Assembly: GCA_046118255.1 (NCBI GenBank)
Contig: JBJNIA010000004.1
Span: 1-64,000 of the forward strand
Direction of reading: 5' to 3'
DNA: 64,000 nucleotides
Source of the DNA: Sluysia triapertura
Taxonomy: Eukaryota
The position numbers were made by a program, and so were the translations under genes. This document shows, piece by piece, positions 38,077-40,023 of this stretch (the first letter of the stretch is position 1; each line of letters begins with the position of its first letter). A model generated the notes under the pieces. That model was not told the DNA's origin, did no database searches, and saw nothing but the letters and a program-made list of their open reading frames with translations.

Positions 38077-40023
38077 ATGACACAACTATTAGGCAACATA
38101 TTAAATACAGCCATACAAAGAATAGGTAACTCAACTAATAATATGTTGTTTATTATAATATTGCTAACTATGTTTGGTATAAATAGGGCTAATGCAATAA
38201 AAGCATTTGATTGCAGCCAGTCACAAATAGGTAGAAAATTTTCTCTACTGGACACGGAAGATTGCTCTGAGTCAAGGCCGAATCGACTACAAATAAAAGA
38301 CACTAAAGTAATGAATGTTTACCAAGAGGATATTTAGTCACAACTTTAATAAGAGAATGCATAGTAAAACGATCAGTAGTGATTTGGTATTGCGGCCATC
38401 ACAGCCACCCATCTATAATATAATTGTCAAATGTACAAAAACCATTTGAAATATTACAAAGACAATGTAGGGATGCATTCTAAACAGGATATATCAGTTT
38501 AAATAAAGGTGATAAGTTGAAAATAGGAAATAATGAGAAAATAATTTACAACATAAGAACTACTGATAGTATATTAATAGACGGAACGTGCGAACAAGGA
38601 ACAATATAATATGAAAAATAATTTACCATAATGTTGTCGCACAAGAAACATATCTTTCAACAAGAGTTTTGACATAGAAAAGGGTACAATGATGTCACGA
38701 TCATATTATAAAACTGACCAAACTAGTTGAAACACAGAAGAATCGACATTAATTTTATGAGTTAGATAAATTCCAATGTCCATTAATATTTTTAAAGCAA
38801 ATAAAATTTAATTTAGTATCCGGATTTATATATCAATACAAAAACGAATACCCAATAGAGGAAATGAGCAAAAATATTGATCAAGTACAAAGAAAAGTTT
38901 GGATGAAGTTGAAATACCAACAATACTAATGGCAAGAAGAGAAGAGGATGTTTTGATTTTTATTTCAAAAGGAACAATAATTCCTAGCGGTAAGGAAATA
39001 ACTGAAACAAATTACCAAGGAATTTATTTGTCGGAAAAAATAATACAACAAACTAAAAAAGGAGTATATGCAAAAAATGTAAAATTAAACACTTATTTTA
39101 ACAATAAAATTGATTTTTATTGTTAATATCATTAGAAAAAATTTATCAAATTATGGTTACACGTGATTGCCAATTAAATTTTACGTACAAAATTAGCAGT
39201 GGCTATTACCCATTCGGACTTAGTCGCACCATTACTACCATTAGAAGAAGGAGTATTCGGAGGAGTATTATACACATATAAATGCAAGAAGGTAGAAGTG
39301 CAGTTAAGATCAACTATCGAATTCACAAACGAATTGCCTATATTATATGGCAAAATAGAAACGTACCAGTAACCAGAGTAATTCTTCCAAACAATAAAGT
39401 TAAACCAAAATTAATGTATTGTTCTAATGTCATGTCAATGTACAATTTGTGGATATCGCTATCGCAAAGGAGTAAAGTAAAAACTCCAGAAATCATAGGA
39501 TTGACTGAACTAAAAGGAAAATTGAAATTTCTAGCTACGAAAAATATACTTAACTCCGGTATTTACACGAATGATTATATACAAGCAGCTTGGAGGGATC
39601 AAAAATATTAACAGAAATTGTAGATCCGCACAAGATACATTAAAACGCGTACGGGGAATACTTTTAATATAAGGACAAGAATTTTCCAGACTAATAGGAA
39701 TTTACATAATAATTAAAGTAGTAGCGTTGATAATTTCTCAAGCGTTTTCAGTAATTTGAATATATAAAATATCAGGATTTACGTGGAGACTAATGATCGG
39801 AGATTAATGTCTTCTACATCACTGTGCAAATGCACAAATAAATGCATTAAGAAAAGAGAGATAACAGATAGAAGAAAGACAACAAATAGAAAATATAGCT
39901 TTACAGTCAATACAAAATAATGAAAATGAAGAAAACCAAAAATTTATAGAAAATCAAATAACTAAAGAAAGTCACAAAAAAGGAATATATCCTATTACTC
40001 AAACTATATTAATAACTATATAA
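38077..40023 (+). pseudogene. env: Chuvirus-like (class III, gB-related) envelope glycoprotein pseudogene, about 650 codons
   Basis: Signal peptide, then in order AFDC..FSLLDTEDC, ECIVKR..WYCGHHSH, CRDAF*TG, DGTCEQG, YHNVVAQ, NVKLNTYFNNK, YKCKKVEVQLR..NELPILY, SGIY, TM segment LIGIYIIIKVVALIIS, GIYP. Confidence 0.85.

Follow-up and report, generated by a model that had tools for sequence, protein, structure and literature searches.

A decayed, dead gene for a class III fusion glycoprotein (env) lies at positions 38143 to 40005, plus strand, of the first 64,000 nucleotides of contig JBJNIA010000004.1 from Sluysia triapertura (assembly GCA_046118255.1; this whole stretch is the window hereafter), and it belongs to an old fragment from the interior of a Ty3/gypsy gag-env-pol element. 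[quoted passage not shown]

The env gene in the window and its sister copies

The env motifs, read from the three-frame translation and the sequence, follow one another on the plus strand between 38143 and 39756 (Table 1), and all motifs named in an initial annotation of the window, made from its sequence alone, were recovered in the order given there. The Pfam profile PF24664 (Monjiviricetes_fusion) matches three of the four env fragments scanned, in colinear fashion (profile positions 2-52, 345-406 and 413-486), with E-values of 7e-5, 1e-3 and 0.016, all below the curated cut-off. The same profile, run against the element's own genome assembly (619 Mb in 263,945 contigs), gave 79 matches (68 scored, of 2,752 candidates), and since these sister copies score up to an E-value of 1.5e-69, the weak matches in the window are not due to chance. 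The window copy itself has undergone about eight frame changes, as seen in the three-frame translation, and carries several stops; about 100 nt are deleted near 39600-39620, immediately 5' of the transmembrane (TM) segment, and over env its identity with even the nearest sister copies does not exceed about 80%. DNA homology with the sister copies starts at about 36006 and stops at about 40005, just 5' of the protease; the window thus holds an internal fragment of the element, without pol or long terminal repeat (LTR). An open reading frame (ORF) at 37079-38002, 5' of env, is continuous in frame with env in the sister copies, a link that the initial annotation missed.

For structure prediction, a natural open frame of a sister locus was used (L035; 490 ectodomain residues, 95-row alignment). 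The resulting model (pLDDT 91.8) agrees with the gB/G-like fold, which is marked by a long central helix and a beta fusion domain. Its best rows in BFVD are chuvirus-type glycoproteins (G), such as those of Tacheng tick virus 4 (E 7e-39) and Wenling crustacean virus 14 (TM-score 0.81, the highest), and in the structure search of the PDB every listed row is a herpesvirus gB (best E 9.5e-13). The PF24664 profile is matched over both the ectodomain and the TM domain, and the cysteines common with the viral Gs are kept; a sequence search with the env G against the PDB returned zero matches. Judged by this model, the class III assignment is firm, and the chuvirus-like class III glycoprotein proposed early on is borne out both by the profile matches and by the structural likeness to chuvirus G and herpes gB.

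The omega values were obtained by counting variants per codon column, with variants shared by at least three copies kept apart from singletons. For the two halves of env, each covered by 42 copies, shared variants gave 0.06 and 0.05; the corresponding values are 0.04 for the TM with the tail, 0.05 in PR, 0.07 in the capsid part of gag and, from 9 copies, 0.01 in RT. Outside pol the singletons lie at 0.75-1.28, as expected from decay after insertion. By these counts env was under strong purifying selection and functional while the family spread, which agrees with the earlier proposal that a retroelement used the glycoprotein as its env.

The carrier element, its reading frame and its cargo

The order of parts at the sister loci is gag (capsid and one CCHC knuckle), a spacer, a helical domain, env, an aspartic protease, an insert, RT, RNase H and integrase; the Pfam families RVT_1, RT_RNaseH, Integrase_H2C2 and rve were found in this order in sister copies. 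Compared with the PDB, the RT is closest to the Ty3 enzyme (E 6e-49; next non-Ty3 row 1e-26), and therefore the carrier is of the Ty3/gypsy and not of the BEL/Pao type; no BEL/Pao-specific Pfam family was found in the sister pieces scanned. The parallel to the BEL/Pao element Anakin, drawn in the initial annotation, accordingly does not hold for the carrier. The insert between PR and RT measures about 200 residues, as estimated from the Pfam ranges, and has no Pfam match. The gag at locus L064 (308 residues) carries one CCHC knuckle without a Retrotrans_gag match and supplies the capsid-side part that lies upstream, in the same frame, of the gag portion kept in the window, where the knuckle matches zf-CCHC weakly (about 1e-4 in sister copies). 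No significant match was obtained in the Pfam scan for the spacer that separates gag from the Bcl-2-like domain.

Several junctions are bridged by natural open frames. The G and the protease lie within one such frame at five loci, and frames that run from the env tail into the protease were read at L003, L006/L071, L007, L012, L017 and L178, the last one an open frame of 1661 residues that extends from the env TM through PR, RT, RH and IN into a second protease. Stop-free, in-frame passages were counted from the Bcl-2 region into env in 11 of 41 copies, from TM into PR in 5 of 21, and from the nucleocapsid (NC) knuckle into the acidic spacer in 8 of 32. Counted by alignment column, eight of the eleven junctions lack a conserved in-frame stop, and apparent shifts occur at three length-variable junctions, two of which, capsid (CA)-NC and TM-PR, are bridged by the natural frames just described. 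In the foreign proteins P0014, P0022 and P0024, each a single ORF, G is preceded by zf-CCHC or Retrotrans_gag and followed by PR. Along these lines a single polyprotein starting from gag is likely, as far as reading frames can tell.

A number of observations point the other way and should be kept in mind. The third apparent shift falls at the junction between the acidic spacer and the segment X1, which is fully open in none of 30 copies; same-frame support comes from L058, with a single stop, and from L092, L107, L110 and L112, which read back into the acidic segment. Continuity here depends on few copies, so that a break between gag and the rest is possible. When 25 loci from the gag side were set against two groups of 25 loci each from the 3' side, in a fragmented assembly, no shared terminal repeat emerged, and neither a primer-binding site nor a target-site duplication was found among the own-genome copies in which they were looked for. 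The junction and column counts suggested a programmed frameshift that would separate gag from the remainder of the element, an idea that was set aside; the copy-by-copy reading gave it no support, and the column count produces the same artefact at CA-NC and TM-PR.

The pol frame does not end with the integrase. It runs on into the second protease domain, whose DTG is present in 23 of 29 copies, and 3' of it three signal-ectodomain-TM cassettes were recognised by eye, a PPxY motif among them. Further 3' lie an ORF with a RING domain (Pfam E 8e-8) and another, unassigned one of more than 320 residues that is conserved in many copies. Summed over distances taken from different copies, the element was traced over about 14 kb. 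A membrane protein also follows the integrase in the foreign protein P0005 and at L061, and two or three tandem aspartic-protease domains come directly after env in P0005, P0010, P0011, P0012, P0014 and P0022. At L007:853-2628 the protease region continues in frame into a fragment of a non-LTR-type RT, which probably reached this place by nested insertion.

Pieces of the family also turned up in the sequencing runs X2, X4 and X8 at no more than about a hundredth of the depth in run X1, with common ends and equal difference counts; in X4 there is a 250-nt exact match at a depth of 2.2. Cross-contamination is the likely cause, and these pieces, like all four runs present as contigs of unrecorded kind, are not evidence of spread or expression. 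Low depth and identical ends also led us to reject the three runs as independent hosts.

Table 1. Features of the env-bearing fragment in the window, and the sister copies that cover the part 3' of integrase
Feature	Position	Strand	Basis
Internal Ty3/gypsy gag-env-pol fragment, cut within gag (left) and just before protease (right)	36006..40005	+	DNA homology to sister copies
gag C-terminal part (nucleocapsid region), one degenerate CCHC knuckle at 36191-36232	36032..36310	+	zf-CCHC
Acidic/coiled-coil and unassigned spacer from gag to the Bcl-2-like domain, broken here	36304..37648	+	tblastn map
Predicted Bcl-2-fold domain: BH4-like, BH3-like, degenerate BH1, BH2-like W-x-E-x-Q-G-G-W	37649..38047	+	profile and fold searches
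env internal signal sequence, predicted A-x-A type signal-peptidase site at its end	38143..38196	+	hydropathy peak; site tally over 44 copies
Signal-like hydrophobic stretch	38143-38181	+	
Class III ectodomain (chuvirus G/herpes gB type) with frameshifts, stops and deletion	38197..39696	+	Pfam, model
AFDC motif	38203	+	
SLLD motif	38242	+	
EDC motif	38257	+	
YCGHHSH motif	38388-38408	+	
DGTCEQG motif	38580	+	
YFNNK motif	39094	+	
KCKKVEVQLR motif	39280	+	
NELP motif	39328	+	
SGIY motif	39555	+	
Transmembrane segment	39697-39756	+	
env transmembrane anchor	39697..39790	+	sequence; hydropathy of sister copies
Cytoplasmic tail/linker, truncated here, in sister copies in frame into the aspartic protease	39791..40005	+	open frames of sister copies
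Sister copies 3' of integrase	L156:2-2890, L178:2402-9947, L179:1013-4346, L185:2712-6730		

The domain upstream of env and the proposed membrane topology

The 130 residues that precede the env signal sequence are predicted to adopt a Bcl-2 fold; the domain was overlooked by the initial annotation. Seven of nine pieces match PF00452 (E 1e-3 to 4e-3, all below the cut-off), and the truncated piece of the window, interrupted by a stop where BH2 begins, gave no match. With a 15-row profile (A2), 59 of the 60 listed PDB rows belong to the Bcl-2 family (Bcl-xL, Bfl-1, Bcl-2; best E 8e-5), and the same profile meets a host Bcl-2-family ORF at E 2e-5 with a probability of 76%; against longer proteins it returned only its own members. 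Fold searches with a model of the domain lead to the same family: Foldseek listed 41 rows, all of them Bcl-2 family with a best E of 0.02, and so are the top 25 rows of VIA (Z 6.2-8.5). The ESM Atlas gave no usable match for the domain. At least 24 of 47 copies retain the BH2 tryptophan/GGW, as do foreign relatives at about 15-28% identity, and the same domain pattern precedes G in the foreign proteins P0009, P0010, P0018, P0019 and P0155, less clearly so in the P0002/P0008 cluster.

Several points tell against this prediction or against a canonical anti-apoptotic role of the domain. The model is weak (pLDDT 57), no Foldseek row reaches an E-value of 0.001, and the VIA Z values stay under the warning level that the tool sets for helical proteins. 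The narrow profile A1, built from the own family, found no Bcl-2 protein in the PDB, and the distant rows of A2 were chosen by eye and by A1 matches. The BH1 signature NWGR, typical of anti-apoptotic Bcl-2 proteins, is absent from the eight commonest BH1 forms of the 47 copies, having been replaced by DKEK in 15, DEEK in 4 and NRER in 4. Moreover, omega of the domain is spacer-like (0.14, with 0.15-0.19 in the spacers), and the domain was not recognised by eye before G in nine related polyproteins.

Poxviruses have Bcl-2-fold proteins without groove function. This precedent counts for the view that the upstream domain is a relic of the Bcl-2 fold that plays no part in apoptosis and instead works as a matrix-like module for membrane binding, as a spacer, or as a signalling inhibitor of the poxvirus A52/N1 type. 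Such a relic is quite possible, all the more as it would fit the loss of NWGR, the spacer-like omega and the patchy presence within the clade; the retention of the BH2 tryptophan/GGW in copies and foreign relatives speaks against it, as do the BIR domains that Burro elements carry too (PMC6431247, in the part of that paper relied on here), which suggest a cell-death theme in this group of elements. We consider it most likely that the Bcl-2 domain dampens death or stress signalling of the host cell while the element is expressed, probably without a canonical BH3 groove. An intronless host-type Bcl-2-family ORF with an intact NWGR is located on an AT-rich contig (L119:384-1079, G000:C18392) and may be a relative of the donor gene.

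The arrangement can be rationalized by the following topology. Gag, the spacer and the Bcl-2 domain would be made in the cytosol, and the internal signal sequence would then thread the env ectodomain into the endoplasmic reticulum (ER), where signal peptidase would cut at the predicted A-x-A site, as tallied in 44 copies. The signal helix left behind would tether Gag-Bcl-2 to the membrane and, at the same time, act as the C-terminal anchor of the Bcl-2 domain; cellular Bcl-2 proteins are tail-anchored as well. The env TM would stop the transfer such that Pol emerges in the cytosol joined to the env tail, from which the protease of the element would free it. This topology resembles that of the structural polyproteins of flaviviruses and alphaviruses. 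With capsid, fusogen and enzymes placed on one membrane, an enveloped particle could bud and move between host cells, and the PPxY motif in the 3' cassettes would fit such a budding step. The design would most likely serve the spread of enveloped particles from one host cell to another.

An alternative, which we regard as unlikely on balance, is that an intracellular retrotransposon keeps env as a structural module or for membrane targeting, or that env acts in cell-cell fusion only, with no extracellular infectious particle being formed. A single polyprotein forces a 1:1 ratio of Gag, Env and Pol, unlike in retroviruses, which counts in favour of this alternative. The ectodomain at L063 contains one N-glycosylation sequon and no furin-type R-x-[KR]-R site, and according to the text of PMC13524379 relied on here it is unclear how far such envs mediate infectivity. 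Against it stand the constraint on env, which equals that on the protease (omega 0.05), and the preservation of the viral-G cysteines in a protein that is modelled as a full class III fusogen; the same portion of PMC13524379 states that gB-type env does not in every case retain the furin site.

Within the favoured scheme of enveloped spread, a more far-reaching proposal would be that these elements form a flatworm lineage of enveloped retroviruses with a class III fusogen, infectious from cell to cell and extending well beyond the planarians, in which one helix is both the env signal peptide and the tail anchor of a viral Bcl-2 protein (vBcl-2), and in which membrane-protein cassettes, a second protease and a RING ligase follow the integrase; this is doubtful at present. 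Were it true, each env molecule would plant an anti-death protein on the ER, that is, a functional vBcl-2 in a reverse-transcribing element, and the topology itself, if correct, would explain how a retroelement can have env between gag and pol in one frame, and would make it possible to examine whether host cell death is manipulated by retroelements.

Origin, host and relation to known elements

The G phylogeny comprises 109 unnamed sequences and 626 columns (FastTree, midpoint root). Omitted were P0001, P0002 and P0004 as redundant, together with proteins whose G is shorter than 400 residues or lacks a findable mature start, including P0019 and P0020. A single clade of 22 tips (SH-like support 0.997) unites the two own subfamilies with all 11 foreign polyproteins in which a protease follows G, one of them (P0008) labelled by eye. 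Since the own Gs and all these polyproteins fall into one clade, the capture is old and shared. The own G is 38-45% identical to foreign gag-env-pol polyproteins and about 20-25% to stand-alone Gs, and the sole protein with a BEL/Pao tail, P0126 (DUF5641), is placed among the stand-alone Gs outside the clade. As far as this one unnamed marker shows, and with no named Anakin sequence among the tree rows, the capture appears separate from that of Anakin. The second own subfamily is a distant gag-env-pol group (L001/L002/L061; G000:C194822, C230250), with an env about 31-38% identical and sister to P0013. P0068 (1259 residues) shows, by eye, a BEL/Pao-like triple zinc-knuckle pattern with the same G family in frame after it, possibly a gag-env in BEL/Pao.

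It had been proposed initially that the capture was independent or much older. The greater age is upheld by the shared 22-tip clade; a new independent capture is not, given the Ty3/gypsy RT, that same clade and the published layout. A lineage-specific capture of a chuvirus glycoprotein in this very host, parallel to Anakin, might draw on the chuvirus Gs as nearest viral structures and on the distance from the BEL/Pao-tail protein in the tree, and is nevertheless very improbable: it is largely refuted by the FastTree phylogeny, in which G nests with the foreign gag-env-pol polyproteins, to which it is also the more similar, and its motifs recur, by eye, in the supplementary env rows that PMC13524379 gives for Schmidtea errantiviruses, the published layout adding to this. 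A solo chuvirus G, i.e., a non-retroviral endogenous viral element beside gag debris, for which the lack of pol and LTR in the window might be invoked, can be dismissed as next to impossible, refuted as it is by the gag-spacer-Bcl-2-G-PR-RT order over the part covered in 19 sister stretches and the window, by the natural frames bridging G and PR, and by the long frame of L178.

The host is likely a flatworm. Eleven cox1 matches were obtained, four of them fish-type, four bacterial-looking and three of one AT-rich type in which AAA codes for Asn, ATA for Ile and AGR for Ser. The corresponding mitogenome contig (G000:C243991; L086, L087) is 14.9 kb long, uses code 9, has its long ORFs all on one strand and a tRNA-Lys(ctt), and carries a strongly divergent cox1 and its genes in an unusual order. 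Code 9 combined with single-strand coding points to a rhabditophoran flatworm. Two nuclear copies of this mitogenome are found, on C37458 and C90747, and one of them lies on a contig that shares a repeat with element-bearing contigs. The gene order appears to fit neither the triclad nor the neodermatan orders and does not look dugesiid, unlike the hosts of Burro; the host is apparently placed outside the Dugesiidae. The code-9 mitogenome with its nuclear copies agrees with the non-arthropod host suggested earlier. On the other hand, the assembly is mixed, with four fish-type cox1 sequences and a foreign rDNA unit, which makes the host call indirect and weighs against it; a host Bcl-2 gene, searched against the PDB, gave no taxon signal.

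The fish-type cox1 sequences, four different ones, are on G000:C219470, C200653, C192378 and C197277 (L080-L082, L232); together with the GC-richer Bcl-2-family exons at L120 and L121 they represent fish DNA in the assembly, from contamination or diet. The full rDNA unit at G000:C2:1736-10759 (L220, L226) comprises an 18S of 2.6 kb and a 28S that measures about 4.9 kb. Its likeness to the 18S fragments found on AT-rich contigs is only 69-95%, it barely matches the 28S piece of the window, and it probably stems from a second, co-sequenced eukaryote. The 28S rRNA fragment of the window (34891-35633) ends at a stretch of 100 N, about 370 bases 5' of the element fragment. It was considered as an R2-type target site and rejected; the N stretch and about 270 unrelated bases intervene and the element begins inside gag, so that a link between the two is not shown. 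Probable host exons on the minus strand at 33810-34187 (weak Ig-like Pfam match, E 0.03) and 45531-45824 (no match) suggest that the fragment may lie within an intron of a minus-strand host gene.

The closest relatives in design are the giant Ty3/gypsy Burro elements (Burro/GYPSM1) of dugesiid planarians, for which Arkhipova and Yushenova (2019) give a BCL2-like motif, a dUTPase-like insert and an env that stands in one frame with the flanking gag and pol and matches mononegavirus fusion glycoproteins (PMC6431247, here and below as far as its description of Burro was covered). In both groups a long polyprotein, likely in the present family, begins with Gag; a BCL2-like motif immediately precedes env, which gag and pol flank in the same frame; PR-RT-RH-IN holds an insert between its first two enzymes; accessory ORFs include a RING finger; and copy number is high, with decayed copies in some species (PMC6431247). 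Bcl-2 cargo is already described there for Burro-2/3/4, the only relevant paper in the portion of the literature on retroelement Bcl-2 that was covered, and the cargo reported here is accordingly not a first report. A study of planarian Burro1 reportedly also deals with anti-apoptotic cargo. The two differ in that one CCHC knuckle is seen here and two to three in Burro, that about 14 kb were traced here without an LTR while Burro exceeds 30 kb, and that env is class III by its model here whereas PMC6431247 likens Burro env to gypsy Env. The gag-to-Bcl-2 spacer is only about 450 residues here. The MATH, BIR, ankyrin and SUMO-like cargo, variable among Burros, has no Pfam match in the parts scanned here, and the second protease and membrane-protein cassettes after the integrase are not mentioned in that description of Burro.

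Chary and Hayashi (eLife; PMC13524379, cited for its main text and supplement to the extent covered) reported gB-type GAG-ENV-POL elements in Platyhelminthes, Nematoda and Bryozoa, those of flatworms being six from Schmidtea, two from Prostheceraeus and one from Macrostomum. These HSV/gB-type errantiviruses share with the present family the Ty3/gypsy POL, the gB-type env, the gag-env-pol order and flatworm hosts, and by eye the env motifs match the Schmidtea C1a rows; intact copies are treated there, whereas the window copy is dead. The words 'bcl', 'apopto', 'Burro', 'polyprotein' and 'fused' do not occur in the main text of PMC13524379, so that the present family links two papers, of which this one is silent, in its main text, on Burro and Bcl-2. 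With BCL2-env-pol and gB-type GAG-ENV-POL elements both published, the reservation in the initial annotation that the element might be an already described family largely applies. New here are the structural support for the class III env and for the predicted Bcl-2 fold, the membrane-topology model, the cargo after the integrase, the selection evidence for env, and the extension of the Burro-type BCL2-env-pol design to a host apparently outside the dugesiid planarians.

The viral Bcl-2 proteins (KSBcl-2, BHRF1, A179L, GIV66, F1L, M11L) share with the present domain the predicted Bcl-2 fold in a virus-like genome; they differ in that the domain here is within a retroelement polyprotein and has lost the NWGR of BH1. 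Sacco and co-workers reportedly described, in 2022, non-canonical endogenous retroviruses (ERVs) of nematodes with a continuous gag-env-pro-pol ORF, and we know of no Bcl-2 domain in them. These ERVs resemble the present family in having env before pol in a metavirus and a glycoprotein derived from an RNA virus; they differ in their hosts, and the nematode env rows of PMC13524379 are, by eye, far less similar than the Schmidtea rows. Anakin, a BEL/Pao element of mosquitoes with a chuvirus glycoprotein (PMC7642597, PMC10084718, each as far as covered), likewise has a PF24664 glycoprotein on an LTR retroelement amplified by retrotransposition, and differs in its BEL/Pao-type gag-pol and arthropod host from the Ty3/gypsy family described here; the work on Troyka (PMC12440569, as far as covered) has no bearing on this family. 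Thus, it is well supported that this family represents a new, decayed member of the published gB/chuvirus-type GAG-ENV-POL Ty3/gypsy kind, which would work like Burro.

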